Positions 17,225 to 60,072 of a DNA stretch of 64,000 nt are shown here, piece by piece (the first letter of the stretch is position 1; each line of letters begins with the position of its first letter). Position numbers and translations under genes: made by a program. The notes under the pieces are model-generated. The model did no database searches and had not been told where the DNA came from. It worked only from the letters and a program-made list of their open reading frames with translations. The DNA comes from a virus (lineage: Duplodnaviria; Caudoviricetes). Location: IMG/VR virus record IMGVR_UViG_3300020388_000009; one strand, written 5' to 3'.

Positions 17225-19369
17225 CTATTCCGGAAATGATGCTCCAGTCGGCATAATATTAAAGTCAACTACAATAAATTCAGCCGTTTTAGCAGGTTGA
17301 AGGAATATTTGTCCTCGCATTTCATTTCTATCAATTACATCCGGAGTATTATTTGTTTCATCCATTACCACTTTAAACGCATACAACCCTTGTCTTTGCT
17401 GTATATTTTCAAAATATGGATTCACAATACTTAAGAATCTGTTTCTAGTCGCTGCCGTATTATTTTCAAATATCAAGAATTTAGTTGTACTAGCAATAAA
17501 TTTCTTAGATGCTATTAATAATCTTCGCACATTTACTCTATCCAATGCAGATGCTTTTTTCTGTAATGTTTTTTGTCCAAATACGGTAACACCTGCATTA
17601 GGGAACGTTGCAATTGGATTCACATTACTTTCATATAATGTATCTCTATTAGCATGAGTTAATTTTCTTTCTGTCTGAACTGCAATATCAATTCCACCTC
17701 TATTTAAACCAGCTGGTGCAAACCATGGAGCGGCTACTCGATCATTAAATGCATATACACCTGGTATCACTGTAGATGCAGGAACCCAAACATTTTTTCC
17801 TAATTCATTATCAGGTATTTTAACCCATGGCCAATACTCAGCTACATAATTTGAATCTCTTGATTCTGCTTTAGCAGTTGCTTGCGATATTGATTGTCCA
17901 TATTCAACTGGATCGATTACCAAGAAACAATCACCCCGATCCTCTACCATACTCACTGCTTCTGTTAACACTGTAGCATGGTTTGGATGATTATCGACTA
18001 GACCAGGCAATGACAATAAATTGATATCATATTCATCTTGATTTTTTAATAAACGAATTGCATCAATATATGCATTTTTACCATTAGCTGCTACACCTAA
18101 ATTATATCCCTGTACATTGGCATCAGTTACATTTTCATAAAATTGCTGTGGATGCTGTAAATTACCATCCGATGCTCCGGAGAATGAACCGGAACTAACT
18201 ACAGGTAAACTATCTTCAGATCCGGCAACTCTTTTGTTTCCATTTGCATCTAAATAATTTAAAGTATTTTTTGCAACTGCAATTCTAACATATTTAGATC
18301 TATTTGGGAATGACCCAGATAATTGAAGGAATGGATCGACACCACCTGCCCCTCTAACGGTAAATACTTGATCGCCAATAACTTTTGCAGCATAATTTGA
18401 TGAATTAGGATCTAATGTTAAATTATTATATTGCTCAACAATGGATTTTCTATTACTTGTATCATCACCTCTTCGTATAATTAAATTGAAAGTACCTTTG
18501 TTTTCATTTTTAGATGTCACTTCCCATCTAATGTTATTTTCAGATCCGGATGCTAATGAATTATTTGTTCCTTGAGGTCCAACACTATTTTGGTCAGCAC
18601 CTTCAGATAATGTTGTTAATGTAAATACTGGTTCAGCTGTTGATGAATTAGCACCACCTGCCATTGTAAATTTATTCGTTCCGGCTGTAGTTCCAAATAC
18701 CGATGGAGCTGCGGCAGATGCAGTTGCAAATACAATTCCATCTGGTCCTGTTCCTAATGCTGAACCTGAAAGTTGTAATATTGCGCCGGCATTGTCGGCA
18801 TTAATACCTGTCAATGTCCCGTTAGCAACCACTGCATCAATTTCTGTTGCCAAAGCTGCTGCTGTATTTGCAATTGCTGCTCCTTTTGCAAAGAATCTAA
18901 TTGAATCATCTGATGCATCAACATTTGGTGTTGTCTGTGCTACAAATGTTACTTCAGTTGTTCCTTGCGTAATTTTATACGATTCATTACTTGCATGAGT
19001 TACTAATGTTAATGATCCAGTTGAACGAACTGTTCCAGTTTCTACTGCATTGTTAACAGTAGCAGTAGCTGGTGTCATTTCTGCTCCAATACGTACAACT
19101 GTTAAAGTATCAGCATATTTCAAATACTCTTGTGCTGCATAATTAGTTAAATATTTATACGAATTTTCATATGCTCCAGAACCGGATGAAAACTTTCCAC
19201 CAAATATATTAACGAATTCTGAATAACTTGATACCACAGTAGGTATTCCAGTTGGGCCTTTAGATGTCGGTCCTACTACGGCAGCTCCAATTGCTTGGAC
19301 TCCAGCTGGTAGAAACGATTGGTCAATTTCTTTAGTAAAAACGCCAGGCGATACTATTTTTTCAGCCAT
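17225..19369 (-). CDS. gp18: Tail sheath protein (gp18-like)
   Basis: SPGVFTKEID, YWPW, PWFAPAGLNRG, NPIATF, GQKTL, DRVNVRRL, FENN, LQPAKTAEFI. Confidence 0.97.
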   Translation of the reverse strand: MAEKIVSPGVFTKEIDQSFLPAGVQAIGAAVVGPTSKGPTGIPTVVSSYSEFVNIFGGKFSSGSGAYENSYKYLTNYAAQEYLKYADTLTVVRIGAEMTPATATVNNAVETGTVRSTGSLTLVTHASNESYKITQGTTEVTFVAQTTPNVDASDDSIRFFAKGAAIANTAAALATEIDAVVANGTLTGINADNAGAILQLSGSALGTGPDGIVFATASAAAPSVFGTTAGTNKFTMAGGANSSTAEPVFTLTTLSEGADQNSVGPQGTNNSLASGSENNIRWEVTSKNENKGTFNLIIRRGDDTSNRKSIVEQYNNLTLDPNSSNYAAKVIGDQVFTVRGAGGVDPFLQLSGSFPNRSKYVRIAVAKNTLNYLDANGNKRVAGSEDSLPVVSSGSFSGASDGNLQHPQQFYENVTDANVQGYNLGVAANGKNAYIDAIRLLKNQDEYDINLLSLPGLVDNHPNHATVLTEAVSMVEDRGDCFLVIDPVEYGQSISQATAKAESRDSNYVAEYWPWVKIPDNELGKNVWVPASTVIPGVYAFNDRVAAPWFAPAGLNRGGIDIAVQTERKLTHANRDTLYESNVNPIATFPNAGVTVFGQKTLQKKASALDRVNVRRLLIASKKFIASTTKFLIFENNTAATRNRFLSIVNPYFENIQQRQGLYAFKVVMDETNNTPDVIDRNEMRGQIFLQPAKTAEFIVVDFNIMPTGASFPE

Positions 19370-19428
19370 TTGTATACTCCTCTTTTATAATCAATTTCTT
19401 ATAAATATTAACATGAAATGCCAAACTA

Positions 19429-19701
19429 TCAATTTTCAGCGACAAACTCTCCAGTATTTATATCAACAGTTCCTTTACCGTATTTATCATTTAAAGCAGT
19501 AACTAACTCAGTTTCTGTTGCTTGTAAATTTTTGAACTGTATCTGCAAAGTAGATTTCATTTCTTCAAGTTTTTTAAGTTCTTCGGTGACCAAAAATACC
19601 TGTAACTCCACTTCACCTAAGCCTGTTATTATTTGTACATTTTCATCTCTAACTTCGGTAATGTTTTTTAATTCTTCTTCTGTAAACTTTTTTGCTGTCA
19701 T
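19429..19701 (-). CDS. Small coiled-coil protein
   Basis: AAGGA SD; ends KYGKGTVDINTGEF. Confidence 0.7.
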   Translation of the reverse strand: MTAKKFTEEELKNITEVRDENVQIITGLGEVELQVFLVTEELKKLEEMKSTLQIQFKNLQATETELVTALNDKYGKGTVDINTGEFVAEN

Positions 19702-19717
19702 AACTTATCCTTTAAAA

Positions 19718-22257: not shown

Positions 22258-25200
22258 TTATCCACAATGATAAGTGCATCCTACAAAAGCTTTTCTGTAA
22301 GTGGAGCCGGACCATTCAAATTCTATACAATCGTAATTATCAGAATCTATTTGGAAATCACAGTCTTGAGTTATTTTGGCAACTGTGTAATTATGAAGTA
22401 AATCATCATCTTGTTTCATTCCTAGGCCCGGAATTGGCGATGTTGTGATATAATCACCATTTTCTAAATTACCAGAGGCATTTGTAACCCAGATAGCACC
22501 TTCTCCTAATGAATTAACAAAGATTCTATCTTCCGAACCGGTTCCCATAAAAGAACATATATTTCCAGTAGGCTCATCTAAGGATTCTCCTTTGTATTCA
22601 TACCTCCATACAACACCAAATACTTTCTTATCTTTGGCAATATTAGACATTTCAATAACAGGAACTGCTTCGCTGATATTAGGTCTTGATGAACTTATAG
22701 GTCGTTTTCTACTATTAGGATTATTATAACTACCATTAGAACTAACAATAGTCCCTATAGGATATAAATTAGTATTACCATCGCCTTCTTTTGGAACTGA
22801 TCTATGGTATCCAGTAAATGAAGTTAATAAATTTCTGAAATCGTCGTCACCACCATCGAAATCAGGGTGTAATTTTATACCTTGGTTACTGGAATCATCT
22901 TCTATATAAAGTGCTCCATTCGTTCCATATGTATTGGAAACACCAAATTGCCATTGTAATGCATTTCCGGTTGAAGTTAGTCCAAGAACGGATGTTGCTA
23001 AAGTTGCGTTATAATCTGGCCCAACTATATCTAATCTAGCAGCTGGAGAATTTTTTGATATTCCTACATCACCATTAGTATCAATTGTTAATCTGTCACT
23101 GCTTCCTAATTGCCCACCGTCGGAAATTTTAAATTTATCGCCATCAGAATGATCAATTCCCATGGCATATTCTTGTATTCCTGTCAATCTGAATGTTTGC
23201 GTAGCATCACCGTCACCATCCTGGTTAATGCTGAACTGTTTATCAGTATCGCTGTTATTTCTATATACTTCCAAGTTTGCTGAAGGAGATGATGTTCCAA
23301 TACCTACATCACCATTACTGTTTATAACAAGATCAGTGCGACGATTGTCATTACCCATCATGATTTTACGAACTGATGAATTAGTAAATATTTCCATTCC
23401 ATCAGTAGATAAATATATATTACCATTGTATGTGGAATTATTACCTGATTCAACATGAAAAAGGAATTTAGTAGAATCAGAACTGTTTTCGTTCTGTATC
23501 TGGAAGTAATCTGTGTCCATTATTACATAATCTGTACTAGAGTTTTCATTTAAACGTAACATCTTACGATTACCGGCATAGAATTCTATATCATCTGAGG
23601 TAAATTCTATTTTGGTATCGGAATCACCAATATGTCCTATCTCATCCATTATATTAACACTGGTTGCATATATTTGGCCACTAGCGCTAATATCATTACC
23701 ACATGATACTTTTCCAGATATATGAGCTTCACCTGCGACCTCTAATGCAAAGCTTGGATTACAATTAATACCTAATTGGTGGTTTGTACCATCCCAAAAT
23801 AGGGCATCTTCTCCGTACACTTGTTTATATCCATCTTGCGAGCCTACAAAATTATCGCCTGGATGATCGGCTACTAATAATCGCGCAATGCCGGAAGTTA
23901 TTGTATCAATATCAACATGATCTGCGTTAGTGGCATTTGCCATTGTAACCGTTTGTATGTCCGGTGTTTTAACCCATAAGGTATTATAACTATAAGTGCT
24001 CCAATTAAGCACTACCAAACTCACATATCCATCCGCGGTTGCCGTATAATCATATTCATAAGTTACCCATGATGTGGATACAGCTCCATTATCATGCCAG
24101 TTTTCGATGCCAGTATCATCTTCTTGCACAAATGGCGATGATGATCCGGCATTATTGGACACATGAGTCTTACCATTTGGCATGTCACCGTTATGTTGAT
24201 ACAGTCGTAAATATGCTCCATTGGTATCCACAACAGAACCTTTGATCATTGTGGTGAATCGTTTTGTTTCACCGGATTTCATGTACACTGCACGGAATGC
24301 AGCTCCAATTGCATTGTCAGTCGCGCTGTATATTTTTATGGCATCTTCGGACTGATCCCATATCACATTGGCTTCTGTAGCACCGCCGAATGCTGGTTCC
24401 CATCCAGCTTCGCGTGCCATTGTGATCTCTATTTCTGTTTCTGTGAATCCATCGACATCTGCGGAAGTTATGTAACCAGCACCATTTGTTAACTGATTGT
24501 TATTGGTTGGTATAGTGGTTGAATTAAATGCATTAGAGCCTAATTCTCTAGTACCAACGTTACCGGAACTATCTATCATCAATGAAGTGTTTTCAGAATT
24601 TTGAGTAGAAAGAGCTGTTAATTGCAAATCTCCTACTGATAATATTCCTGATTCATTTAAGGTAAGCAATGTGTTTGCAGTTCCAGTTGTATGTTTACCA
24701 ATACTAAATGTATTTGTGCCATTATTATTACTATCAATATTAATTCTAACATGACCATAACTGTTTATAGTAATGTTATCATTATAGGTACCATTATTTG
24801 TGGATGTTATGGAATGGTTAAAATTGGTTCCGTAATTATCAGAATCCCATGTAAAGAATATGCCGCCCATTCTATATAGCTTGGTGCTTTGATTATTCAC
24901 ATACCTACCATAAATGTCCCCTGCAAATGTTATATCACCAGTTGCTGTATCATCCTGATCTGATCTTAAGAATTGCAGAGAATCTATTCCGTCCAATGTA
25001 TCAGCGTTAGTTGCAGAAGTAGCTGTGTCTGCATTTCCAGTTAAGGTACCTACTATATTTGGCACTGTTAATGTGTTTGAACTCGGATTATATGTTAAAC
25101 TATTTACCGAATCCTTTGCCATTGCAAAGTTTCCGGCTGCAGTACTAGTGCCAAACTGAAAAGGTATTGGATAATTATCGTTATTCGTAGTGGTAGATAA

Positions 25201-28200
25201 ATTAACATGTAGCGCATTTGTAGCCTGTCCGGCAAACTGAGAAGCTAAATTTCCATCACCATCAGTAGTTAATAAATTTGCAGTTTTTAAATTTCCAGAT
25301 GAATCTTGCACCACAATTAAATCTGAGGAGCTTCCGGCTACTAAACTGTTTAACAGCAACTTACCAACCGTTAACGTGTCTGTGCCAGGGTTATATTTGA
25401 AGGCTGCATCTGCTTTTAAACTTTCATTACCACCATCCGGAGATGTATCATCAATAAATGTTATTGGATGTTCGGCATTGCCGGAATCTGCAGTTACTTT
25501 CACGTTACTAGCGTTAGTAGCAGTTCCAGTTAACGCGCCAGAAAATGTAGTGGAATAAAGTATATTATTTGTAGCATTGAAATAAAGCGCGCTATCTTCA
25601 AAAACAGATTTGAATCCGGCTGAGCTATCCAACGTGAATAGTATTGGACAGTTTGTATCACCGGTATCTTTATTGTTTATGTTAACCTTGGTGGCATTGG
25701 TGGCGTTAGTGGCGTTAGTTGCATCTAATGCGTTTTGGGCGAAATTTGCAGAGTCTGCATTTCCAGTTAAATCTCCTGTTACATCACCTGTTAGATTAGC
25801 AGAGATATTAGGAACTGTTAATGTGTTAGTGGAAGGATTATATTGTAGACCACCGTTATTATCTACCATCATATATTGGTTACCAGATGTGCCGGCGAAC
25901 ATACCAATATTAAAGTCCATGGCAGTATTATTTGTCGGTGTTGTACCAACTGTAACAGCTGATGTCGCTGTATCAGCATTTCCGGTTAATGTTCCTATAA
26001 ATCCGGTGGCAGTAACGTTTCCTGTCGAAGGATTATATGTTAAAGTACCATCTGATTCTAAACCTAAGTTACCACCTGCCACAGCTCCTCCGGCTGTAAA
26101 TATAAGTGCATTATTTTCATTTGTAGATTCATTATCAGTTATAGTAACAGTAGTTGCAACAGTAGCTGTGTCAGAATTTCCAGTTACATTGCCAGTTACA
26201 ATTAAACTACCGGTTATGGAAACTGATCCTGTAAATTGATGAAATGCTTCAGCTGGGTCTGTATCGTGACCAAATATAGATGACCCAGAACGCACTACTA
26301 TTTGATCTTCTATTATTTGGTATCCATTATGAGCCGTACTACCACCAATAATATGATTACCTGCGGTATATAAATCTCCGGAACCACTTATATCTCCTTG
26401 CACTGTCAATGCTTTTGGTGGAGTTGTAGTTCCTATACCTAAGTTAGTATTATCAAAGTAACTTATGTCTTTACCAACTTTTAATACTTTAGTTCCTGCA
26501 TTTGCCGTGGCACTACCATAACTAAAAAAGGCTATTGGTTGATCGGTGCTTGTATTGGCAGATTGCACATAAAGCGGTGAATTACCTGCACTATTTCTTG
26601 TTATCAAACTGTAATCAGTAGTGCTTGTGTCAGTACGGAATGCATCGCTAGTTGTTATTCCATTCACATCTAATTTTGTAGCTGGAGAAGTAGTTCCAAT
26701 ACCGACATTACCAGATGCGGAAACAAACATTCTGGTTGTGTTATTAGTTTCAAGAAATATAGAAGCATTATCTACTTTCAATTTAATATCTTTATTACCA
26801 CCGCCATCTGTTAAAGTTACTGCACTATCTATCCATCCAATATGCGCTCTACTTCCATTGAATGATATTTTAGCAGAATCTCCAATGGCATTGTCATCGG
26901 TGTCTATATAAACAACAGTATCATTGGTAGAACCTTTTACATGGAGCGGGCCACTTGGTGTAGATGTTCCTATACCAACTTTACCATCTCCTTTTATTGT
27001 TAATCTATCTTCATTAGCAGTTTTTAAATTTATAGCTCTTCCATCACTATTATGGCCAATATCAAGACCTGTATCATCCATATCAATTGATGTAACATAT
27101 CCTGAATTCTTTGTAAGTTCTAATAAATTAGTTCCTGATGAGGCTGATATATGTAATTTTGCTGATGGTGATGTAATTCCTATACCAACATTACCACCAT
27201 TATAATATGAATCGCCGGCGGCGGATATCTGTACTTTAGAAGTGGTGTCGCTATATAGTTTTAATAAACCAGGATTAGTATTTCCATAATTAATAGCAAC
27301 ACCAGATGCATGATCGGCATGTAAGTGGAAATTACCACCTCCTTGATTTATACTAGATTCCCTTCCATGAGAGCTTTCAAATTTTATAGTAGATTCAGGG
27401 GCATAAACATGCAATGGTGTGTTAGGAATATTAGTTCCTATACCAACGTTAACAGATGAACTTAAATATGTGGTACCATTGTACCAAAGATTGGATTGAG
27501 ATAAAAGAGTTGCATCTGTAACAGAATCGGCTACCAATGCATGAGATACACTTCCAGATAAACTTCCGGTAAATGATATAGCTTTAACATTGCCGGCAAC
27601 TTCTAAAGTTGCATCAGGAGTAGCTGTTCCAATACCAACTTTACCATCTTTGGTAATACGCATTTTTTCGGTATTACCAACAACTTCTTTGTACGTTTTA
27701 AAGGCTATATCTCTACCAGTAGTACCATCAGCATCATTATAATGAACTCCTATGCCTCCATCACCATTGTTGAAAGTTAACAAGCATCCATCACCACCTC
27801 TAACATCAATATTACCATTTACAGTAAACTTTTGATATAATGTAGTATTAAGTCCAATACCAACTTTACCACCGTTGTTTATATAGCTATCAGTACCATT
27901 TTCGCCGTATAGACTAATTTTATTATTACCGGCAGAATCTCTTATTATAAGTGAACCATCTCCGGAACTATCTGATCCTAATACGGCTACCTTTTTATTA
28001 CTAGTGTTTTTTACACTTATATAAGTAGCGTTACCATACACTTGTAATTTATCGTTAGGAGTAGGAGTTCCAATACCTACGTTACCAGTTGAAGTAATAC
28101 GTGCAAATTCGTTAGGCCCATTTTCAAATCTGATGATAGCACCATTAATTTCTACATTACCCCATTTGCCTCCGTTATAACCTATATTAAGAGTAGAAGT

Positions 28201-32731: not shown

Positions 32732-33373
32732 TCAATAACCCAGGTAAAAATCGCCAGAGGCACTATAAAACATTCCTCCTTCCTGGGCCGTAGGTGTTGT
32801 AGAAAATGCTCCTAATACTGTAACTCCTTCTAGATTGATAACAAATTTTGCATCATCCGATCCATGTGATTTTACCAGAAATAAATCTCCAGGAGTACCA
32901 TTACCAGTTATGATATTTTTTGATGATGATATTACTGGAGCAAATAACGATTGATTAACATATAAATCATTTGTAGTATCAACTAAAAATGAGTCTTGTC
33001 CTATTATTACCGGACCAGGTGTTTTTATCGATCCAGAATGTAATGTCAATGATCCAGATATTACCGATGGTCCATGCATTAAAACAGAACCAGTAATTGT
33101 CAATGATCCAGATATTACAGCAGAACCGGAAAATGGAAATACGGCGCCTGAGCCTTCTGCAAATGCTAATGCTATCCATGTTGAATCTGAAGTTTCGCTG
33201 CCAGGATTGGTACATGCATAATATCTGTTTTCATCTGATTGGTAAACTAGTAATCCTTCATACAAGTTAAACCATGGTATTGCAAGACGTTCAGTGTTGT
33301 TTGCTACAACCGATCGTGAATCTAAAGGTTCTTGTGTATTTGGATTAAATCCTACTCCAATATTCACTGCCAT
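32732..33373 (-). CDS. Fibre-associated protein
   Basis: N-terminal PLDSR...YEGLLVY module; C-terminal TPTAQEGGMFYS. Confidence 0.55.
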   Translation of the reverse strand: MAVNIGVGFNPNTQEPLDSRSVVANNTERLAIPWFNLYEGLLVYQSDENRYYACTNPGSETSDSTWIALAFAEGSGAVFPFSGSAVISGSLTITGSVLMHGPSVISGSLTLHSGSIKTPGPVIIGQDSFLVDTTNDLYVNQSLFAPVISSSKNIITGNGTPGDLFLVKSHGSDDAKFVINLEGVTVLGAFSTTPTAQEGGMFYSASGDFYLGY

Positions 33374-47700: not shown

Positions 47701-50700
47701 GAATGAAAATGTAATGGTTCCCAATTTGCCACAGATCCGGTTGTGAATGCACCTTCATATGCAGAGCCAGAAATTGATATCGCTGTATTAGAATGATGTT
47801 GATTGGTTCGATGTTCTATTACTATTCTATTTAACGCTATTGGTTGTACACAGTCAATTGCAATCCATAAATTAGCACCGGTGTGATCAACGGCCATTGC
47901 ATTGCTATCATATTGCCCGGTATCAGTGTTATATATGTTAACAGTGTTATTCCATCGAGTTAACCAGTTATCAGTATATGAACCTAAGATATATTTTGGT
48001 GGATAACTAGAGTACCAATGCGATGCAGTGATATTAGTTTCTGCTGGAATAAATTCAGGTCCGGTGAAATCAGTCGGGTTTACTCCATCTTTATTACTAA
48101 AACCTGTCACTTCTATTTCTGTTTTAGCATGATGTGGTCCAAATGGTTCTTCTATATCTGCTAATACTCGCATACTTACAAGTTGATTACGTGAATCTGA
48201 ATTCTGATATGTTCGATTTACAACGTTATCTGTTTCAGTGGTTTGAAGTCCATGCAATACTCTAGTTTCGCGCGATGATGTACCGGCCGTTGATCCAGAA
48301 TGTTCCTTTTCCACTTCTACACGCAAATTAGTGATCTGAGTTGCATCAGGAGGTTGAATTGTAATATCTGCACTTGTTACAGACCCAGTTTCAATTCCAT
48401 CCGCGGAATCATTAATTATGTATACACCGGTTGTATTTGATCCTGTTTCAGCTGATGGTGTAAATGTATATGCACCAGCCGCAAATTGAGCTCCTCCATA
48501 CCATGACGAAGTAAAGGTTTGAGAAAATAAATTATCAGAATTCAATGCTCTCATTCCAGAATCACTTGCGGTGTCTTGACTGGCAGTATGGAATCCAAAT
48601 GCAAATGAATGACCTTGACCATCTGTCGCAGATACCTGAGTTTGGAAATGACCTAATCCTAGCGGTTCAATAACTTTACCTAATATACGGAAACGCATTG
48701 CAGCACTTCCAGACCATATATCACCTATTGCATCAGCTGTTTGTGCTGTTAAAGTATTATTATGCCCGTATAATATTTTCTGCGTCCGTGAACTGACTCC
48801 AATACTTGAACTGTATGGAAAGGCTTCTGTTTCTACTCGCAGTCCATCTATTTCTAATGGTTTACTTGCACTTACTACAAGATATAGATATTGAGTACCG
48901 GTACTGGATTCATATCCATTTTCGGATACATTATCATGTTTAATAAAATTAGTAGTATCAGATAAATATATTTGTATATAATCATTTGTTGAATTATTAT
49001 TATAACTTCCTGATAAAGTTTCTCCGATCCATGATGATGTATATCGACCAACTAATCGTGACTGTTCATCATATCCTACTTCAGATGATGCAGTTTGAGT
49101 TGATGATGTACTGAACGCAATAAATTCGCTATACTTAGTATTGCCGCCATAACCTTTATTATCTATATAATATCGCATTAACGAACTACTATGCATTGGT
49201 CCTACTGGTTCTATAATTTCAGTTAAAATACGGAATCGCGTCACTGCATGTGGATCATATATATCAGATAAATCACTACCAGTTGCGCGAGTTGTTTCTT
49301 CGCCATATAAAATTGATCTGGAAATTGCACTGGCATTTGACACAGATGTGTTTTGCGTACCGATACCACTCTCTCCCCGTGTTTCAGTTTCTATTCGCCA
49401 GTTTTCTATTATTGTAGGTGCAGTATCAATTATTTGCATTGTAGTTGTAGTAGGTGATGATATTGTATGATCATTTTCATTTGTTGGTGCATGTACAAAA
49501 CTAGCAGAAGCAATCCAATCTCGCGTACTTCCGGCGCCTACTGATAAACTACTTCCGGAAAACGATGTTGTGTATTGTGCTACAATTCTATTTGATGAAT
49601 CTTCAAATGAATTGACCGTTACTATTGATGAACCAGTTTCAAATGTAATTGTTTCAGTTATATTAGTTTGTCCGGAAGATTTAAGTATTTTGGTAACAGC
49701 CGTTGGATGTGTAACTGGACCTACTGGTTCAATTATTTCAGCTCGTATTCGGAATCTAGATACCGATTGTGATGCGTATAATGATGCAGAATCATGAGTT
49801 GCAAATGATGATGAATCAGCTAATGATCGTCTAGTTACTCCATATAACACGGTCCGCTGTTGTGTTCCGGTAACGCCGGCGTCCGTAACAGCGCTAGCAC
49901 TATGACCATAATTTTCAGATTCTACAAATATATTTTTAATAATTGTCGGTGGTGTATCATGTACAGTTAACTCACCATCCGTTTCAGTAATATCAAATCC
50001 ATTTTCGCCAGAAACTTGTTCTATGAAACTGCCAGTCAAAACATATACTGTATTACCACCTGCAGCTGCCGTAAATGATCTTCCTGTAAATGATTGTGTA
50101 TATCGAGTAACTAATCGGTCTTGGTCATCATAACCATGTGTAACTAGTCCACCTTCCGCTATTGATCCAGTATCTATCATGTAAAGTTTAGAACCACTAC
50201 CATATGATGCACTTACCTGTATTTTATGAACACCTGGTCCAATTGGTTCAGTTACCTTTGCTCGGAATCTTACACGTGATACTGATTGAGATGCGTATAT
50301 GGATGCGGATGGATGATTAGTCCATGACAAACTTTCAGATGTTGCATTTGTTATTCGAGGATCTCCGTATAACACTGTACGGGTTGCATTAGACATGGCC
50401 ATATCAGAATATCCATGCGTTTCTGTTTCCCAGAAAACATCTTCAATGGCAACTTTCGGAGTATCATGTACTACCATGGTAGTTGATTGTCCAGATTCGG
50501 TTACAAATCCACTAGCATCATTAGGTGTATGTAATATTGATCCGGAAGTATATGTCCATTCGGTAAAACTATTACTACTAGCTGATAATTGTTGTCCTAC
50601 CCATGATGATGTGTAATGAGCAACCAATCGGTTCTGTGCATCATATGCAATTGCAGATGAAGCAGTATGAACTGAGCCAGTACTAAAATATAATATATTA

Positions 50701-53450
50701 TTAATAGGGGCAAGACTAGAACCAATTATTGTTTCAAAAAATTGTAATTCAAATATACTAAAATATTGACTAGTAGAAGATGCATTACATGTGAATCGAT
50801 AATATTGGTATGTATTTAAATTTGTAAAATCGTTTATACCTCTTGTTACAGTGCTTGATCCGTTACCGGTAACTGTATCTAATGTAACGTATCCTGAATT
50901 AGGTGAATTAGAAGCTTCGAATGTCCAACCAGTCATTCGATATGAGCTAAAATATAATATATATTGTCCAATATTTACCGCAGAACCGAAATCATATGTA
51001 AATGAAGCTCCAGCAATTCCTGAACTGTCATAAAATATATGTGAGTCAGTATTAGCAGTACCTGACGTAGTACCATCAAATATATCACCAGGCCAAAACG
51101 TGTCACTTGCTGCAGTAGTTGTTAAATTGTTTTCTGATAATCCTGATATGGCAGCACCTATACTATTTGTACCAGGAGGTGTGCTCCATACCTTTTCAAA
51201 ACGTGATGCAGTATGATGCGGTCCGAATGGCTCTGTTATAGTTGCTAACACACGGAAACGTGACACGGAATGAGATGCGTATAATGATGCGGAATCGTGG
51301 CCTTCAAAGGAAGCGGAATTTATCAAAGTATGATGAGGTGTACCATATAATACTGTACGCATTGTATCTGCACTTCCTGTATCAGAATATCCGTACGTCT
51401 CTGATTCATATACTATGTTTGTTATTTCCGTTGCCGGAGTAGCGCTCACAGATACCGAAGCATATGTTCCTGGTATAATTGTACGTCCGGCGTTTGTAGC
51501 AGAATCAAATGAAGCACTAAATGTATACTCGCCAGGCAACAAATTAAAGTTGATCCATGATGATGTGTAATGAGCAACTAACCGGTTCTGTACATCATAT
51601 GCAATTTCAGATGATGCAGTATAAGTTGCACCAGAACTAGTATGAAATTGAAATTCATAAGAATGTGCATAGTCACTACCTGGTGTAGTTTCTAAAGTTG
51701 ACTTCATGTTGGTATGGTGTGGTCCAAATGGTTCTGTCACAGTTGCCAACAAACGTAATCGTACAACTGATTCACTTATATATTCTGCCGATTTTTCATA
51801 TCCTTCTAAACTTGAAGTTTCTGAAACTTGTAATGTTGAAGTGTATCCATATAATACGCTTGCCGATCTTTCAAATGATCCAGTACCAGTTAAAAATGAT
51901 CCAGATTCCACTTCCACTCGTACATTTGATATTTCAATATCAGGTACAGGGGTTACTGTCAATGTGGTCATTGGTCCTGCTGCGGCATCAGATATATGAT
52001 TATAAACTCCATGACGTATAATATCTGTAGTATCACCAGTTTTATTAATTAGAGTATATGTAGCTGGTTCATACTGAAAAGGCGAAAAACCTAAACTTTC
52101 TGTCACATCGGTAAAGGTAAAATTGTCGCCGTATGCAGATGCCGTGGCTCGAAATAATCCAGTTGCCATACTTCCGCTAAATCTGAAAGTTTTATTATCC
52201 AATACTGAAGTTCCGCCGAATTCGGCAAATTTTATATCTGTGAAATGTGTACCATCTGCAACATAATCTGGTGGTTCTGTTATATCAGCCATTACAGATA
52301 CACGTACCAGCGATGCAGTATAACGAGGATGTAGTCCAACAATATTATCACGTGTAATGACATCATCGTATAACACCGTAGTAGTAAAATTATTAATTCC
52401 AATACCAGAAAATGAACCAGATTCTATATGAGCTCGTATATTACTAATACTTGCAGTATTTGGTGGTATTACTAGTAAATTAACATCAACGGAAGATGAA
52501 TTTTCAAACTGATTATTATCCTGCATATAAACCGTAAACGTTTCTTGATACGACTGCACTGATGATGCGTGTATTGTAGTTCCATCCATAACACCGTAGT
52601 TTGATATACTGGCAGTAAACACTAATGCATTATCTGGCATAGCCGATGCATCGGGACCATAACCATCTGGTGCACCTGGTGAGATAGATCCAGTTGCTAT
52701 GAAAATTTGGCTATCAGCAATATCAGGTTGTGGATGTTTTAAAAATAAATTGTAACTTGCAGATACCGACGTGATAGGTGGATCTACCTGTACTCTGGAA
52801 GCTGAAAAAACTCGTATAAAATCGTTTTGATTAGAATCTTCAGATCCGGTAAAACTAAAAATTATATCTTTGGCATTTGTATCATGAGCTAAAGACATAG
52901 TTAAACTAGCACGATGTGCAATCGTCGGTGGTACATTGATAAACCCTTTAATAAATACAGTAGAATATACCAATTGAGTATTGTTTGCGCTACCGGTCTC
53001 AGTTGCATAAACTAAATATCGATGTACGCCAGGTGCTAAATCATTTTCAAATGCATTTTGACCGGTTAGATCATTAACATAATCCTGGCCAGTATAAGAT
53101 GAATTGCCGCCGGCTTGCTTGGTTACAAATGTATCTTGAATTTTAATAAATGAATAATAATTTGGATTGAAATCCGCGGAATGTGTAGTTTGTATTAATA
53201 CATCTCCTTGGTTCGCAACATCTTGTCCAGAACCAAGTATTATCACATGATCAATTGATTCAGCAGGTGATCCGGATATTCCAGAACCAGAACCAGCAAA
53301 AAATACTTCAGTACCTATTCCGGAGAGGCCAGAACCATCACCTACAAATGCATCTGCAGTTATAGTGGTTGCTGTAACTCCACTTTTAAATTGAGCTATA
53401 CTACCAGATTGTACCCAATTGCTACTAGTAAATTGATGTTTTCCTGCCAT
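44715..53450 (-). CDS. Giant (2911 aa) virion surface protein with ~8 long repeats and two inserted discoidin-like domains
   Basis: Repeats marked by I..E.E...R..LYG...SR.R..A.I.EP.GP; YQYYRFTC and YRWYMITF domains. Confidence 0.65.
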   Translation of the reverse strand: MAGKHQFTSSNWVQSGSIAQFKSGVTATTITADAFVGDGSGLSGIGTEVFFAGSGSGISGSPAESIDHVIILGSGQDVANQGDVLIQTTHSADFNPNYYSFIKIQDTFVTKQAGGNSSYTGQDYVNDLTGQNAFENDLAPGVHRYLVYATETGSANNTQLVYSTVFIKGFINVPPTIAHRASLTMSLAHDTNAKDIIFSFTGSEDSNQNDFIRVFSASRVQVDPPITSVSASYNLFLKHPQPDIADSQIFIATGSISPGAPDGYGPDASAMPDNALVFTASISNYGVMDGTTIHASSVQSYQETFTVYMQDNNQFENSSSVDVNLLVIPPNTASISNIRAHIESGSFSGIGINNFTTTVLYDDVITRDNIVGLHPRYTASLVRVSVMADITEPPDYVADGTHFTDIKFAEFGGTSVLDNKTFRFSGSMATGLFRATASAYGDNFTFTDVTESLGFSPFQYEPATYTLINKTGDTTDIIRHGVYNHISDAAAGPMTTLTVTPVPDIEISNVRVEVESGSFLTGTGSFERSASVLYGYTSTLQVSETSSLEGYEKSAEYISESVVRLRLLATVTEPFGPHHTNMKSTLETTPGSDYAHSYEFQFHTSSGATYTASSEIAYDVQNRLVAHYTSSWINFNLLPGEYTFSASFDSATNAGRTIIPGTYASVSVSATPATEITNIVYESETYGYSDTGSADTMRTVLYGTPHHTLINSASFEGHDSASLYASHSVSRFRVLATITEPFGPHHTASRFEKVWSTPPGTNSIGAAISGLSENNLTTTAASDTFWPGDIFDGTTSGTANTDSHIFYDSSGIAGASFTYDFGSAVNIGQYILYFSSYRMTGWTFEASNSPNSGYVTLDTVTGNGSSTVTRGINDFTNLNTYQYYRFTCNASSTSQYFSIFELQFFETIIGSSLAPINNILYFSTGSVHTASSAIAYDAQNRLVAHYTSSWVGQQLSASSNSFTEWTYTSGSILHTPNDASGFVTESGQSTTMVVHDTPKVAIEDVFWETETHGYSDMAMSNATRTVLYGDPRITNATSESLSWTNHPSASIYASQSVSRVRFRAKVTEPIGPGVHKIQVSASYGSGSKLYMIDTGSIAEGGLVTHGYDDQDRLVTRYTQSFTGRSFTAAAGGNTVYVLTGSFIEQVSGENGFDITETDGELTVHDTPPTIIKNIFVESENYGHSASAVTDAGVTGTQQRTVLYGVTRRSLADSSSFATHDSASLYASQSVSRFRIRAEIIEPVGPVTHPTAVTKILKSSGQTNITETITFETGSSIVTVNSFEDSSNRIVAQYTTSFSGSSLSVGAGSTRDWIASASFVHAPTNENDHTISSPTTTTMQIIDTAPTIIENWRIETETRGESGIGTQNTSVSNASAISRSILYGEETTRATGSDLSDIYDPHAVTRFRILTEIIEPVGPMHSSSLMRYYIDNKGYGGNTKYSEFIAFSTSSTQTASSEVGYDEQSRLVGRYTSSWIGETLSGSYNNNSTNDYIQIYLSDTTNFIKHDNVSENGYESSTGTQYLYLVVSASKPLEIDGLRVETEAFPYSSSIGVSSRTQKILYGHNNTLTAQTADAIGDIWSGSAAMRFRILGKVIEPLGLGHFQTQVSATDGQGHSFAFGFHTASQDTASDSGMRALNSDNLFSQTFTSSWYGGAQFAAGAYTFTPSAETGSNTTGVYIINDSADGIETGSVTSADITIQPPDATQITNLRVEVEKEHSGSTAGTSSRETRVLHGLQTTETDNVVNRTYQNSDSRNQLVSMRVLADIEEPFGPHHAKTEIEVTGFSNKDGVNPTDFTGPEFIPAETNITASHWYSSYPPKYILGSYTDNWLTRWNNTVNIYNTDTGQYDSNAMAVDHTGANLWIAIDCVQPIALNRIVIEHRTNQHHSNTAISISGSAYEGAFTTGSVANWEPLHFHSDGNQDKNIEFENGTLYRWYMITFAAGHWRNYAEGEGEYAGAENIFFFEAPPRIGTFGSHEFLLHTGSAHLSSSIESLYEQHGSQSMSYTSSFTPIQFINSGGLNTDPEVFIISASKVTHGFNDSKTVQYAVVSESIITVSPARTASITVAASTSGLDTDYSSSSDLPVYVTYNADNDISIDVISGISASAPLITSESYVRFADHVHINYNTNGPTGLTFAPAKSSDSSHNTSSLTIDSSYMSTLTKVEHLTVLISGSTTISDPYYGQGTSSVSEFTFAVVPAKPRSMEGRYWGAGNASSHDSTNNPYGGQGINFVGIDGNYHRLYSATLPTGLGIYGPDDSPGSHVTNVIMAKESHTGPVNYSMSFTPFTPSSTGDYSNNDRLFDFGDSGSLIVKINGSEVVNYDLGGQFVLLSKSGSQNISTEYAGNGTASFTAPHASKGRLIVTTVQPFNNVSQSIQNGVEYYPNGYQGWSARIEIDAKLNDGYNNLEFSHSINDEIIQSWKPFSWYYDDGIKGEPTISLHGEPTLSYAPLAGVEPTFSLSGVSYFKEDEYFKISLDDRVHAIPHNTYRRSNNSSDYVSEIGHDHGNTYFKLETGSGASATVHEQSLFNLPANMNGLQFGNSSRDIVPTSYASASIKDFKVKAPDVTNADKGQVYQLYARTYKRDLSSDDSWTVDPNKAKLPVGRFLDENAISSTNAINGKTSDIAIEDFYNESFRWTSASFADSASFNFNKGGGANANYGTAAVAGATPAGIPGYADFWLRGHFSASIIDDELYTDSSAGPNFQSHISISGSNELQQYYDGRLEYPTLDYTSVATDRQGHTINYAVVNPNAPDYSNETGDKFYCRAFEATTPIMYIFIFTDDTNRDNFRITAGNIESGVGLDDRPVRIDVALPGPLPTVGVANSPTNPGTKFQNIFQANLSSVLYNDNVGLLSQMRNHSQDLSGAFRVKINFSQFIPANAGSVMLMRVRIKDSYGNSIKGIHVSSNGTGDI
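50601..51622. repeat. 68-bp near-identical repeat (50601-50668 and 51555-51622)
   Basis: 5 mismatches by manual alignment. Confidence 0.85.
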
Positions 53451-53935
53451 TACAATTCATCCGGATTAATTATAACTGTAGTTCCTGTAACTAAAGTTTG
53501 TTTTGATGCAGTACTCATTGCTAATAATAAATATCTGTATATACCAGTACCTAATGTATCTGTTAACGAATTTTGATTAACTAATCCTTTTTGTGTTCCA
53601 GAGTAATCAGAAGCTTCTTCCCATAACGCGGCATCGGATAAATCTTGTCGTAAAAATGTGAAATGATTAAATGTTGCACCGGATGCCGAAACTGATAATG
53701 TTATGGTATGGTTGCCGCCGGATCCAGTGATCCATTCTCCATATGTCGGTGGAGTAGCTAATGATTCAGATCCAATAAATAATTGTATTCCGGTTGTAGT
53801 AATACCAGTTAACGCAGATCCATCTCCTATTAATTTTGCGTTAACCGATCCGGTCACATCAATGCCAGATTTAAATTTTGCAATAGATCCGGATTGTACC
53901 CATTCACTACTTGTAAATTGATGATTGACAGGCAT
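53450..53935 (-). CDS. Paralog of the N-terminal domain of the 2911-aa protein
   Basis: HQFTSS.WVQSGSIA.FKSG and G..RYL shared. Confidence 0.7.
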   Translation of the reverse strand: MPVNHQFTSSEWVQSGSIAKFKSGIDVTGSVNAKLIGDGSALTGITTTGIQLFIGSESLATPPTYGEWITGSGGNHTITLSVSASGATFNHFTFLRQDLSDAALWEEASDYSGTQKGLVNQNSLTDTLGTGIYRYLLLAMSTASKQTLVTGTTVIINPDEL

Positions 53936-55767
53936 TACATTTTCCTTATCATTGCTCGAATTATACCGCCTTCAATATTTGTTTCTAATGATTGAGCAAT
54001 TATTTTTCCAAATAATTGAAGTTCAAATATTTTACTAGGATTGACTGCTTTACCATGTCCTGTGATATTACTAGTAATTATATAATCGCCTTCGTATACT
54101 GGGCCATTTACTAATACAGGTTCTGCTCCTAATATGATTGGAAAATTACTACCAGATGAAACGATACCCATTATTAACGGATCTGCTTCGGCTGTACATG
54201 GCACCATTTGACCGGCTTTTGAGACCAATACAGTACCTGGTTGTAGTTGATCTAATCCTTTGGTTTCTAAATTAATTTCATGTATACCACCAAAAAATGT
54301 ATCTATAGCAAATATTGCTTGCCATTTTTTATCAAATGCTCCTAAATTATGAGAGCCATCGGCAGATGGTATTATATTTTCTCCAACCGCTGAAAAATCT
54401 CCTCCTCCTCCGCCACCACCATAACTACCAGTATAATATACTTGGCCAGTATCTGTATCATACATTAACGTGTTTAATGCAGATGCCGTCGTTGATGCAC
54501 TTATAAATAAATGTCCACTTGCACTTATATTACCTGATGATGTTATGTCACCTAAAGTTTGTAATGAACTTGAAATAACACCTGCAGGCAAATTTAATTT
54601 TATTTGAGCAGAACTTGAAATGGTATTTGCTGGCAGATTTAATTTTATTTGAGCAGAACTTGAAATGGTATTTGCTGGTAGATTTAATTTTACTTGAGCA
54701 GAACTTGATATTACACCTCCGCCAATATTTTCTTGCACTTGCGATGCAGAAATAAATGATTGACCTTGCCAAGAACCTGATATTCCAGCTGGTGTAAAAG
54801 CAGTGCCTGACATGAAATCACTAGAAAGTTGTGCAGAACTTGATATTACACCTCTGAATATACCGACAAAACTGGGTGCGGTTACTATCCCATCAGCAAG
54901 AGTTAAATTACTACCGGTGATGAATACAGAACCTGTAAATTGATGTGTAACGTCAGATGGTATTGATCCAGAACCAAATATAGTTGATCCAGATCTTACA
55001 ACTAACTGATCTTCGAATATCTGCACTCCATTAAATGCAATACTTCCATCTAACCGCGTATCATCAGTTACTAACAATTGTGATGCTGTTACGCGCGATG
55101 ATGATATATTTGTAAACGTTACATCTGTTCTGCTGGCTGATGCTTCAGTTAATGTTATACGAGTCGAAAATGATTCGCTAGCTGATGTTAACGTACTGGC
55201 TGATGCTTCAGTTAAAGTTACACGTGTACTAAATGATTCGCTAGCTGATGTTAACGTACTAGCAGATGCTTCAGTTAAAGTTACACGTGTACTAAATGAT
55301 TCGCTAGCTGATGTTAATGTGCTGGCTGTTGCTTCTGTCAATGTTACACGTGTCGAAAATGAACCACTATCAGTTACCATGCTACTGGCTGATGCTTCAG
55401 TTAATGTTATACGAGTCGAAAATGATTCACTAGCCGATGTTAATGTGCTAGCTGTTGCTTCTGTCGATGTTACACGTGTACTAAATGATTCGCTAGCTGA
55501 TGTTAATGTGCTGGCTGTTGCTTCTGTCAATGTTACACGCGCCGAAAATGAACCACTATCGGTTACCATGCTACTGGCTGATGTTTCAGTTAAAGTTACA
55601 CGTGTAGAAAAAGATGCACTCGTATCATAAAATGCACCTGATATTTGTGTTGATAAAGCAATAGGTATTATAGACCCTGTACCATCAGCAAAATTAACGC
55701 CATCAGTTTGGACTACACGCTGAAAAGTGTCTTTTATATTCTGGCCTGTAAAATTGTCAAGAGCCAT
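53935..55767 (-). CDS. Coiled-coil fibre protein with C-terminal peptidase G2-like / chaperone-like domain
   Basis: Eight 21-aa repeats, three 15-aa repeats, HQFTGS cassette, GPVYEGDYIITSNITGHG. Confidence 0.65.
   Translation of the reverse strand: MALDNFTGQNIKDTFQRVVQTDGVNFADGTGSIIPIALSTQISGAFYDTSASFSTRVTLTETSASSMVTDSGSFSARVTLTEATASTLTSASESFSTRVTSTEATASTLTSASESFSTRITLTEASASSMVTDSGSFSTRVTLTEATASTLTSASESFSTRVTLTEASASTLTSASESFSTRVTLTEASASTLTSASESFSTRITLTEASASRTDVTFTNISSSRVTASQLLVTDDTRLDGSIAFNGVQIFEDQLVVRSGSTIFGSGSIPSDVTHQFTGSVFITGSNLTLADGIVTAPSFVGIFRGVISSSAQLSSDFMSGTAFTPAGISGSWQGQSFISASQVQENIGGGVISSSAQVKLNLPANTISSSAQIKLNLPANTISSSAQIKLNLPAGVISSSLQTLGDITSSGNISASGHLFISASTTASALNTLMYDTDTGQVYYTGSYGGGGGGGDFSAVGENIIPSADGSHNLGAFDKKWQAIFAIDTFFGGIHEINLETKGLDQLQPGTVLVSKAGQMVPCTAEADPLIMGIVSSGSNFPIILGAEPVLVNGPVYEGDYIITSNITGHGKAVNPSKIFELQLFGKIIAQSLETNIEGGIIRAMIRKM
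54580..54712. repeat. 45-bp coding tandem repeat, 3 copies
   Basis: ISSSAQ[VI]KLNLPA units. Confidence 0.88.
55131..55621. repeat. 63-bp coding tandem repeat, 8 copies
   Basis: SFS[TA]R[VI]T.TE.[ST]AS units. Confidence 0.9.
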
Positions 55768-57410: not shown

Positions 57411-57421
57411 ACAACAACACA

Positions 57422-58195: not shown

Positions 58196-58223
58196 ATCTC
58201 TATCTTTTAATTACTTATAATTA

Positions 58224-58253: not shown

Positions 58254-58282
58254 TCTTTTGGCAGCTTTTTTTAAAAAAGTTC

Positions 58283-58310
58283 AAAAAAAAACCCTCCATG
58301 GTAGGAGGGC
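58283..58310 (-). terminator. Intrinsic terminator after major capsid gene
   Basis: GCCCTCC-TACCAT-GGAGGGT followed by T8. Confidence 0.9.
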
Positions 58311-58335
58311 TTTAATATAAAAATAATTTTAAATA

Positions 58336-60072
58336 CTATATAGTATCTAAGCCATGAACTAATACTTTACCGTAGAATTCAGGACGAACTATTTTCTTAG
58401 CATAACGAGTCATAACACCTTTTCTTGGAGTAAAGTTGTCTGGATCGTATACCAATGGAGTCATAATTAATGGAATGTATGGAGAATATACAGCACCTGT
58501 TTCTAGGAACTGAGATCCACGATATCCCATTAAAATAGAATTTTCAGTCATATATGGATTCTTATAAACTTGGAATCTAGAATTAATAGATCCAACTTTT
58601 TGAACACCCATTGCAAACTGCATTTTATCACCATCTGTATCAGCAGCATATCCTGGAATAGATTCTAGGATAGTCGCAACAGTTGGAGAACATACAAGGA
58701 AGTTAGCTCCACCTCTTAAAGTTAATTGGTGAATTTTGTTCGAAACTTTTTGTATTTTAGTACCTAAAGTTTGGAACCATGTTCCTTGGTTATATGCTTG
58801 AGCTGCAGAATTTCCGGCATTAAATCCACCAACGGCTGCATTATACTCATAACCTACTTTCGCAGACCATCTTTCAACAGTTTGAGCATTTTCTTGTAAC
58901 ATGCCTAAAATTTCTAAATCAATTTCTTGCGAAACGTATTCAGATAACATGCTAGTCAATTCTGCTTCAGCATCAATTGAATGATATGCATTTAAATCTT
59001 GGGCAAATTCTGGAGTCCATACTGCCTTCAACTTACGTGTCTTTGCAACAATGGCTTCAGATCTCATTTCAAGATTAATTTCTGGAATATTTAAAGAAGT
59101 GGAGCCGTTCATGTCTTCGTTAGGAGCTTGATCTTCGTAGTCACCTCTAGTAATATCAGATGGTTGTAACGCAAATGATACTTTAAATGCAGATGTCGCT
59201 TTGATATCTGCATCTTTCTTAATTAAGAATTCAATATGCGAACCGTTAGCAGTTGTTCTAGTAAATTCTGGATAGAATGCATTTGATCCAGACAAGTTAA
59301 ATGAACGAACAGCTTCTTGATCATAACGAGCAGCTACAGATGCATCTGAATGTAATGATTTAGAAGGTACTGATAAAATAACATGATTATCACCATGTAC
59401 AGATGCAGAAAACTCAGAATTAAAGTTTGTAAAGATACCTAACTCTGTAGCAGTCATTGCATCACCTGCTGATGCAGCAGTAGATGTAAATAAACCAGTA
59501 GTTGCAGATATAGAACCAGTTCTTGCAGTAGTAATTCCAGATTCACCTAATGTAACAGAAGCACCTTCCACCATATTAACTGAATATCCAAAACGACCTG
59601 GGCCATAAAGACCTTCAGTTCCTGGTGTTCCTTTACGAGCATCAGTGATACCAAATACAGAATCAGATTGAGCATCTTTTCCTTGACCAGTCAAGAAATC
59701 ATTTCCACCTGCTTGGTCAATTTGATTAACCGCAGTACCATATTTAAAGTCTAAGTAAAATACTAGACCAGATGGTAAGTTCATTGGTTGTACAGAAACA
59801 AAGTCTTTAGCAGCAATTTCAGCAAAAATTCTACGAACTAATGGAAGAGCTACCCCTGACCATTCTTCTGAATTTGAGTTTCCACCTGTCGCAGATGCTT
59901 CTGTTACCAATTGCTTGGCTTGGTTCTCTAAAAGAACGGCCATGCCTTTTCTTTCAACCTCTGATGATAATCCTTCCAATAAACCAGTCCTTTCCCACTT
60001 ACGTTCAAGTGCGATAGCAGCTGCATTTTGATTGGCACGACCATCTTGAGGCAATAATGAATTTATATTCAT
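58336..60072 (-). CDS. gp23: Major capsid protein (gp23-like)
   Basis: LLENQ, VQPM..PSGLVF, AKTRKLKA.W..E.AQDL.A.H..DAEAEL, YSPYIPL, FTPRKGVMTRY. Confidence 0.97.
   Translation of the reverse strand: MNINSLLPQDGRANQNAAAIALERKWERTGLLEGLSSEVERKGMAVLLENQAKQLVTEASATGGNSNSEEWSGVALPLVRRIFAEIAAKDFVSVQPMNLPSGLVFYLDFKYGTAVNQIDQAGGNDFLTGQGKDAQSDSVFGITDARKGTPGTEGLYGPGRFGYSVNMVEGASVTLGESGITTARTGSISATTGLFTSTAASAGDAMTATELGIFTNFNSEFSASVHGDNHVILSVPSKSLHSDASVAARYDQEAVRSFNLSGSNAFYPEFTRTTANGSHIEFLIKKDADIKATSAFKVSFALQPSDITRGDYEDQAPNEDMNGSTSLNIPEINLEMRSEAIVAKTRKLKAVWTPEFAQDLNAYHSIDAEAELTSMLSEYVSQEIDLEILGMLQENAQTVERWSAKVGYEYNAAVGGFNAGNSAAQAYNQGTWFQTLGTKIQKVSNKIHQLTLRGGANFLVCSPTVATILESIPGYAADTDGDKMQFAMGVQKVGSINSRFQVYKNPYMTENSILMGYRGSQFLETGAVYSPYIPLIMTPLVYDPDNFTPRKGVMTRYAKKIVRPEFYGKVLVHGLDTI

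Follow-up and report, generated by a model that had tools for sequence, protein, structure and literature searches.

An ordered, lineage-specific [ST]-[GA]-S motif on virion proteins of a T4-like phage clade as a candidate sequon for phage-encoded O-glycosylation

The closest described counterparts of the system considered here are viruses that put sugars on their own particles. Freeman et al. are said to have described, in Cell Host Microbe in 2023, the glycosylation of mycobacteriophage virions by phage-encoded glycosyltransferases. The mycobacteriophage glycans sit on C-terminal extensions of the capsid and tail-tube subunits of siphoviruses; to our knowledge no tripeptide sequon has been described for this system, and we know of no defined protein-glycosylation sequon for any bacteriophage. 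Among giant viruses, chloroviruses encode their own transferases and the fibrils of Mimivirus carry glycans with virus-made amino-sugars. Chlorovirus capsid glycans are N-linked at atypical sites, and the hosts are eukaryotic. Here we analyze a 64,000-nucleotide stretch of viral DNA (IMG/VR record IMGVR_UViG_3300020388_000009, hereafter the window) in which a short motif, [ST]-[GA]-S, recurs in many unrelated structural proteins and may serve as a sequon for a modification made by the phage itself.

The mycobacteriophage work is cited in PMC12619734. Two systems from bacterial adhesins bear on the question as well. GtfA and GtfB carry out the O-linked N-acetylglucosamine priming of the serine-rich repeat adhesins Fap1, GspB and PsrP (PMC6973325, PMC5207161), while TibC/TibA and Aah/AIDA-I represent cytoplasmic hyperglycosylation of many Ser, and not Thr, residues of a beta-rich fibrous surface protein with no strict linear sequon; N-S-G-G and T-S-A-A are among the contexts modified in TibA (PMC4358343). 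Our literature search returned no report of a glycan on virion proteins of the phages considered here, no publication on the [ST]-[GA]-S motif, and none mentioning Mel-JY01, one of the cultured phages discussed below.

The motif proves to be genuine: its residues come in a fixed order, selection maintains it in the proteins, and its sites are conserved in position. The structural proteins concerned are listed below, where proteins are the open reading frames (ORFs) of the window, all of whose genes lie on the minus strand, and counts are [ST][GA]S sites observed versus expected unless stated otherwise.

17225..19369, minus strand, tail sheath protein, 714 residues; 7 sites at residues 62-393, Pfam sheath core at 436-705
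22258..28548, minus strand, structural protein, 2096 residues; weak excess, 13 versus 7.6 (z-score about 2)
28786..31137, minus strand, structural protein, 783 residues; weak excess, 10 versus 4.3 (z about 2)
31154..32689, minus strand, non-repetitive protein, 511 residues; 16 versus 3.0
32732..33373, minus strand, protein of 213 residues with a hexapeptide-periodic run (ISGSLT ITGSVL ... ISGSLT LHSGSI); 6 versus 1.0
33376..37044, minus strand, Ser-rich structural protein, 1222 residues; 25 versus 7.8
38303..39859, minus strand, tail-fibre protein with an Mtd_N-like N-terminus (IQIRRGTGS...), 518 residues; 13 versus 2.6
40700..44461, minus strand, structural protein, 1253 residues; 26 versus 6.3
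44715..53450, minus strand, giant structural protein, 2911 residues; 64 versus 13.8 (local-shuffle z 13)
53450..53935, minus strand, protein of 161 residues; 5 versus 0.9
53935..55767, minus strand, fibre-like protein, 610 residues; 29 versus 5.4 (local-shuffle z 9.4)
58336..60072, minus strand, gp23-like major capsid protein, 578 residues; 3 sites (residues 185, 222 and 261) in its variable central part

A sequence-only reading of the window had described a slightly wider form, [ST][GAS]S with occasional SES and SQS, as dense in unrelated structural proteins. Against whole-protein shuffles this form is observed 20 times versus 5.0 expected in the 511-residue protein (z 6.7), where about 19 sites had been claimed, and the density claimed for six further proteins is borne out at z 4.1-12.8: 83 versus 25 in the 2911-residue protein (z 12.8), 36 versus 10 in the 610-residue (z 8.3), 34 versus 11 in the 1253-residue (z 7.7), 40 versus 17 in the 1222-residue (z 5.7), 7 versus 1.7 in the 213-residue (z 4.3) and 6 versus 1.4 in the 161-residue protein (z 4.1). 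The 518-residue protein (14 versus 4, z 5.5) and the sheath (7 versus 2.3, z 3.1) complete a set of nine proteins to which the excess is confined. ‘Virion-wide’, as that reading had it, is an overstatement: the capsid has 3 sites versus 1.5-2.2 expected, which is not significant on its own, the 2096- and 783-residue proteins reach a z of only about 2, and the tail tube protein has 0 sites versus 0.1 expected. The excess also survives the shuffling that had been proposed as a check when residues are permuted only within blocks of 10 or 20 (z 2.6-13 over the nine proteins and 4-13 leaving out the sheath, which falls at 2.6-3.4 while the other eight are hardly altered). A first-order Markov model accounts for about half of it, with observed counts at 1.3-2.4 times the Markov expectation over the nine proteins and still about twice in the 511- and 2911-residue proteins. 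Window ORFs beyond the top 15 by expected count hold 7 sites versus 6 expected, so there is no motif avoidance in the enzymes; the remark that the motif is nearly absent from them is true and uninformative.

Ranking all tripeptides in 15 structural proteins of the window narrowed the definition. SGS is first of all tripeptides by excess (75 observed, 16 expected, 4.7-fold) and SAS is third (65 versus 14.6, 4.5-fold), with TGS at 43 versus 13.6 (3.2-fold) and TAS at 36 versus 12.1 (3.0-fold). Mirror tripeptides of identical composition are flat (SGT 1.3-fold, SAT 1.2-fold), SQS (1.0-fold) and TSS (1.2-fold) show no enrichment, and SSS (1.7-fold) and SES (2.1-fold) are marginal at most. Since the mirror forms, SQS and TSS are not enriched and SSS and SES barely so, the true motif is [ST]-[GA]-S with position 3 strictly Ser; of the variants first proposed, SGS, SAS, TGS and TAS stand, SQS drops out, and SSS and SES are weak. 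The asymmetry is also seen in the window as a whole, where T[GA]S stands to S[GA]T as 80:32. Each motif position is encoded by a mixture of synonymous codons, and therefore selection acts on the protein and not on the DNA; a DNA-level repeat as the cause was rejected on the same ground. In the flanks, Ile is enriched 3-fold at position -1, and Phe or Ile is favoured at +3. Spacing between motifs peaks at 6 residues because of the hexapeptide-periodic run in the 213-residue protein.

The contexts in which the motif occurs are unrelated to one another: 21-residue repeats, a hexapeptide-periodic run, a non-repetitive protein, sheath insertions and the variable region of the capsid. The 21-residue repeats lie in the 610-residue protein, which has no Pfam or PHROG match, at residues ~50-210 (window ~55140-55620, minus strand), where about 7-8 tandem copies of SASESFSTRVTLTEATASTLT carry two motifs each; they are followed by 16-17-residue repeats, ISSSAQIKLNLPANT. 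The 2911-residue protein contains a recurring ‘EPFGPHH’-type segment (residues ~570, ~740 and ~1770), ‘vsrfr’ segments and, below threshold, a NedA-like galactose-binding domain spanning residues 791-869; the over-represented tripeptides include PHH as well. Homologues of the 518-residue tail-fibre protein are enriched too (11 versus 2.9 in the 169-kb IMG/VR genome G001, 14 versus 3.2 in Mel-JY01). Its N-terminus is a widespread tail-fibre domain, IQIRRGT...GEL...DTG (Mtd_N, E-value 3e-4), which here reads RRGTGS and YGSGS. The usual residues at these positions are RRGTAA and IGDG, and the domain looks as if a tag had been written onto a conserved scaffold.

Conservation of individual sites is best seen in the 511-residue protein, which has no relative in GenBank phages or IMG/VR and for which the metagenome protein search, the only source of relatives, gave 32 homologues. 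In the alignment of 25 sequences (24 homologues and the window protein), homologues are 43-68% identical to the window protein, and each has 10-18 sites versus 2-3 expected (z 5-10). At four sites all 24 homologues keep the motif, at three of these as invariant SGS, and at eight more it is kept in at least half. Ser conservation is 72% within the motif versus 33% outside it, the central Gly is 82% conserved, and replacements stay among TGS, SGS, SAS and TAS. In the fold prediction the sites fall at strand ends, in a low-confidence model (predicted local distance difference test score, pLDDT, of 55).

In the sheath and capsid the motif follows the variable parts, as had been noticed from the window alone. 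All seven sheath sites of the window lie outside the conserved C-terminal core, and among four close phages no sheath site falls outside the variable region that the N-terminal and inserted part make up; at one position of the alignment all four have the motif and the jumbo phage LR756508 has EEG. Sheath orthologues have 4-8 sites in motif-rich phages and 0-2 in LR756508, RM378 and the outgroups. Across 80 IMG/VR capsid orthologues of the clade the motif is enriched 2.7-fold (286 versus 104), almost all sites corresponding to window residues ~120-320, the least conserved stretch, with a few hot columns and much turnover.

The window’s phage is an uncultured marine T4-like myophage of the clade of Rhodothermus phage RM378, Flavobacterium phage immuto and Microcystis phage Mel-JY01 (tree support 100/100 for the capsid and 95/99 for the sheath). 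Its low-GC segment (31-38% guanine plus cytosine) has the markers of a gp23-type T4-like phage: Pfam finds a gp23-type major capsid protein, a T4-type tail sheath, a gp19-type tube, a gp15-like sheath terminator, a T4 baseplate protein and a prohead protease, with further matches to PhoH, UvsX/RecA, gp32, a PolA fragment and a 5′-3′ exonuclease. The capsid is 57% identical to those of Mel-JY01 and immuto, 51% to that of the uncultured jumbo phage LR756508 and 36% to that of RM378. The ~38 kb from capsid to sheath are occupied by very large genes rich in Ser, Thr and Gly, for which Pfam and PHROG give almost no family match. We infer these to be the fibre and baseplate module from their position and size, the single Mtd_N-like N-terminus and the tail-fibre annotation of homologues in immuto. 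By exact-protein look-ups, the window belongs to ENA contig ERZ831745 NODE_38 (176 kb).

The excess is confined to the phage lineage that carries the transferase genes described below. Eight further genomes were scored ORF by ORF, the score being observed over expected sites in those 15 ORFs of a genome that rank highest by expected count, a choice that avoids selection on the outcome. The window scores 3.7, immuto 2.8, Mel-JY01 2.6, RM378 2.5 and G001 2.4, while the T4-like coliphage AV113 scores 0.95, XacN1 1.1, the T4-like cyanophage S-SSM6b 1.3 and LR756508 1.4. In 80 capsid-centred IMG/VR loci, long Ser/Thr/Gly/Ala-rich ORFs have 904 sites versus 253 expected, with T[GA]S to S[GA]T at 388:102. 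The absence of an excess from other T4-type phages means that the motif is not general to T4-type fibres, sheaths or capsids. In Mel-JY01, unlike the window, SGT is strongly in excess as well (105 versus 23 expected; PP395634.1 635-3052 and genome-wide); position 3 may be relaxed to Thr in this phage, or one repeat protein may dominate the count.

Glycosyltransferase and sugar-pathway genes, which the sequence-only reading had suggested seeking elsewhere in the genome, do occur in this phage, in a cluster ~27 kb past the window’s left end and after the replication genes. The order beyond that end is DnaB, ribonucleotide reductase, 7-deazaguanine-pathway genes, GroES, PolB, GroEL and a PD-(D/E)XK nuclease, then a 485-residue GT4-like gene. 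NODE_38 itself shows only the start of this gene, gtA, and the whole cluster was read on a Logan contig of the same population that carries an identical 72-residue neighbour protein. In order, the cluster comprises:

gtA and gtB, adjacent GT4-like transferases of 485 and 440 residues
an ORF of 159 residues, then a GT2 transferase of 210 residues, then two unknown proteins
two oxidoreductases, one a flavin adenine dinucleotide (FAD) enzyme and the other of the GFO/IDH/MocA family
a DegT-type sugar 4-aminotransferase, which matches dTDP-4-amino-4,6-dideoxygalactose transaminase at E 2e-64
a methyltransferase and a further GT2

The cluster transferases are soluble, phage-specific GT-B and GT-A proteins. 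Pfam matches them to the GT4 and GT2 families, the GT4 matches falling just below threshold; both gtA and gtB keep the E-x7-E of retaining GT4 enzymes (in gtB as GEGFGRPLLE in 4/5 members), and neither has a membrane segment. The gtB model (pLDDT 89) has a GT-B fold whose best solved match, among the Foldseek matches listed (B736L, HepE, MshA, BshA and TreT), is the chlorovirus NY-2A transferase B736L (3oy2) at E 2.7e-18, the next best being 5e-13. Sequence matches to B736L were also found for gtA and gtB (E 1e-6 and 4e-3, identity ~17%). The nearest Atlas clusters to gtB are 96-100% viral, and along roughly one third of the protein there is weak similarity (23-27%) to proteins of Arthrobacter and Microbacterium phages that are annotated as glycosyltransferases.

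The set of gtA, gtB and GT2 follows the same nuclease gene in G001, G003, G004, immuto and Mel-JY01. In RM378, Rm378p013 pairs with Rm378p014 (gtB profile E 2e-7), and a GT2 lies ~2 kb downstream, just past the ribonucleotide reductase gene; in G001 an APH-like phosphotransferase lies within the sugar cluster. The gtA orthologue of Mel-JY01 is split in two ORFs of 190 and 302 residues in the deposited genome (PP395634.1 83441-84932). The same genome has a 1227-residue ORF with a gtB-like GT4 domain (profile E 2e-14) amid its motif-rich fibre genes (PP395634.1 4747-8430); this may be a transferase domain that has been joined to a structural gene or that is encoded between such genes.

Motif excess and sugar cluster occur together in 6/6 motif-rich genomes or populations that could be scored for both, and four genomes, the three outgroups and LR756508, were counted as having neither. 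The informative case is LR756508, which falls within the clade in four trees (capsid 100/100, sheath 95/99, RecA 100/97, protease 95/96) and, in the markers for which RM378 could be compared, stands nearer to the window than that phage does (capsid 51% versus 36%, sheath 49% versus 29%); it keeps a gtA orthologue (31%), lacks gtB and the small GT2, and has no ORF with a motif excess. When the 208 ORFs of G001 were filtered for those found in both immuto and Mel-JY01 but in none of the four motif-poor genomes, five remained: two fibre proteins, a 206-residue GT2, a 398-residue GT2 and an 86-residue Cys-rich protein. gtB also passes once a cross-hit (3e-4) to the gtA paralogue of LR756508 is discounted. 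Only 4/46 IMG/VR records of the clade exceed 90 kb, and the record G002 has neither the gt pair nor the flanking nuclease; the region is therefore simply not covered there. In all, the co-variation of motif and transferases is suggestive but thin.

Other genes of the same phage as the window include, at L105:4728-7474 (~5-8 kb past the window’s left end), PTPS (QueD-like), radical-SAM (QueE-like), GTP cyclohydrolase I and phosphoribosyltransferase-family proteins with GroES between them, a 7-deazaguanine-type pathway that suggests modified DNA; GroEL is at L105:15226-16851. In the window, an 83-residue ORF between the prohead protease and capsid genes (61179-61430, minus strand, corresponding to L101:12382-12633) matches Pfam Ribosomal_S21 and would be a phage-encoded ribosomal protein bS21.

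There are several possible explanations for this pattern. The one we prefer, which we regard as an evenly balanced proposition, is that [ST]-[GA]-S on outward-facing virion proteins is a sequon for phage-encoded cytoplasmic O-glycosylation. Late in infection, soluble phage transferases would use a phage-made nucleotide amino-sugar and attach the sugar, in the host cytoplasm, to the third-position Ser of the motif. The targets, modified before assembly, would be fibre, baseplate, sheath-insertion and capsid-insertion domains that have folded or are in the course of folding, and the outcome would be a glycan-coated particle. The candidate machinery is gtA, gtB, the 210-residue GT2, the further GT2, the DegT-type aminotransferase, the two oxidoreductases and the methyltransferase. 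The fuller claim, which we advance more tentatively, is that a widespread aquatic T4-like clade, with the cultured immuto, Mel-JY01 and RM378 among its members, bears a coat of phage-made glycan on its fibres, baseplate, sheath and capsid insertion domains, put there by a dedicated cytoplasmic O-glycosylation system (the GT4 pair, the GT2s and an amino-sugar pathway) that reads [ST]-[GA]-S. What had been proposed from the window alone, a sequon for phage-directed modification, thus holds in part, in that the motif is ordered, selected and lineage-specific and candidate enzymes exist; the attached sugar itself is predicted.

Several observations weigh against glycosylation. The transferases could act on DNA or on host polysaccharide instead. 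Non-structural phage proteins avoid the motif nowhere (observed/expected ~1.0-2.1), and a promiscuous cytoplasmic enzyme might impose avoidance. The co-occurrence of motif and enzymes, which the sequence-only reading had proposed looking for and which is found, amounts to about two independent events (the origin of the clade and the loss in LR756508), too few for statistics, and LR756508 has different fibres, presumably a different host, and differs in much else. Lastly, the hydrophobic flanks (Ile at -1, Phe or Ile at +3), and the fact that 3-4 sites are invariant over sequences of ~40% identity, fit a structural role equally well.

Such a role is the alternative that survives best, although we think it unlikely. 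The motif with its flanks, Phi-[ST]-[GA]-S-Phi, could be a strand-start or tight-turn element with the small residue toward a packed core and the hydroxyls outward, spread within the clade by descent and domain shuffling, with no enzyme reading it and the sugar genes serving DNA or host-glycan modification. The 3-fold Ile at -1 and hydrophobic +3, the spacing peak of 6 in the hexapeptide-periodic segment, the conserved central Gly, the four 511-residue sites that match throughout and the strand-end positions in the low-confidence model are all as expected from it; the positional conservation of many sites, named at the outset among the grounds for refuting a sequon, fits either reading. The restriction to one lineage makes a purely structural explanation less likely. 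In LR756508, XacN1, the T4-like coliphage and the cyanophage, sheath orthologues carry 0-2 sites versus 1-2 expected, and no excess is seen in the fibres. The motif turns up as well in the 21-residue repeats, whose sequence character is quite different, and in non-repetitive proteins unrelated to one another; in the capsid, sites are gained and lost among relatives at a maintained density, and domain shuffling cannot explain an excess in proteins with no detectable mutual similarity.

A reader other than a glycosyltransferase, whether Ser-directed phosphorylation, acylation or ADP-ribosylation, or a clade-specific assembly factor or chaperone, appears improbable. The motif does behave like a recognized sequence, being ordered, conserved as a class and lineage-specific; the clade encodes both GroES and GroEL, and the APH-like phosphotransferase of G001 sits inside the sugar cluster. 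The presence/absence screen, however, returned transferases and not kinases or chaperones, and we know of no chaperone with such specificity. Finally, that Ser/Gly/Thr-rich low-complexity segments and internal repeats inflate the counts is largely refuted and essentially excluded, for although the enriched proteins are 12-17% Ser, the 610-residue protein is tandemly repeated and a Markov model explains about half of the excess, the excess outlasts local shuffles and is found in the non-repetitive 511-residue protein and all its homologues, the mirror tripeptides are not enriched, and the Ser-rich fibres of four other phages show nothing comparable.

If [ST]-[GA]-S is indeed a glycosylation sequon, a large set of abundant phages from marine and fresh waters carries its sugar coat precisely where the particle faces the host surface and its surroundings. 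This would affect how hosts are recognized, how stable the particles are and how they evade grazers or host surface defences, and it would supply a short, portable sequon together with soluble enzymes for glycosylating proteins in the cytoplasm. Should the motif prove structural instead, a lineage-specific tripeptide rule imposed on many unrelated folds would still be unusual.

Compared with known systems, the proposed one shares with GtfA/GtfB an adjacent, similar-sized GT4-type pair, a cytoplasmic location, Ser in S-A-S-rich runs and surface-fibril acceptors, but its acceptors are folded domains and not long low-complexity repeats. Membership was rejected: DUF1975 is absent from gtA and gtB (a Pfam scan to E 0.1 gave Glycos_transf_1-type matches only), gtB keeps the EX7E catalytic motif while GtfB is described as a non-catalytic partner, and the structural neighbours are others, with no GtfA or GtfB structure among the Foldseek matches listed for gtB. 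The TibC/Aah autotransporter heptosyltransferases resemble the proposed system in directing hyperglycosylation to Ser, in their case on beta-helical autotransporters, but differ in that the enzymes here are GT4 and GT2. Membership was likewise rejected, as none of the ten cluster proteins scanned against NCBIfam had a match of the TibC type.

The resemblance to virus-encoded systems is closer. As in the mycobacteriophages, glycosyltransferases are encoded in the same genome (gtA, gtB and the GT2s lie on contigs with proteins identical to those of the window’s phage), and soluble phage transferases would glycosylate the phage’s own virion proteins in the cytoplasm. The arrangement differs: in place of C-terminal extensions, the sites form an internal tripeptide on the fibre, baseplate, sheath and capsid insertion domains of a myovirus, with none in the tube and those of the capsid at residues 185-261 of 578, and the transferase genes adjoin replication genes, not structural genes. 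With the giant viruses the proposed system has in common the solved structure closest to both gtA and gtB among the matches listed, that of chlorovirus NY-2A B736L, and a virus-encoded cytoplasmic apparatus with an aminotransferase of the 4-amino-4,6-dideoxy-sugar type and a methyltransferase; it differs from them in their eukaryotic hosts and other acceptor proteins, and the identity to B736L is only ~17%. On this comparison, the proposed system would work most like mycobacteriophage and giant-virus glycosylation, that is, as a virus-encoded cytoplasmic system aimed at the virus’s own particle.

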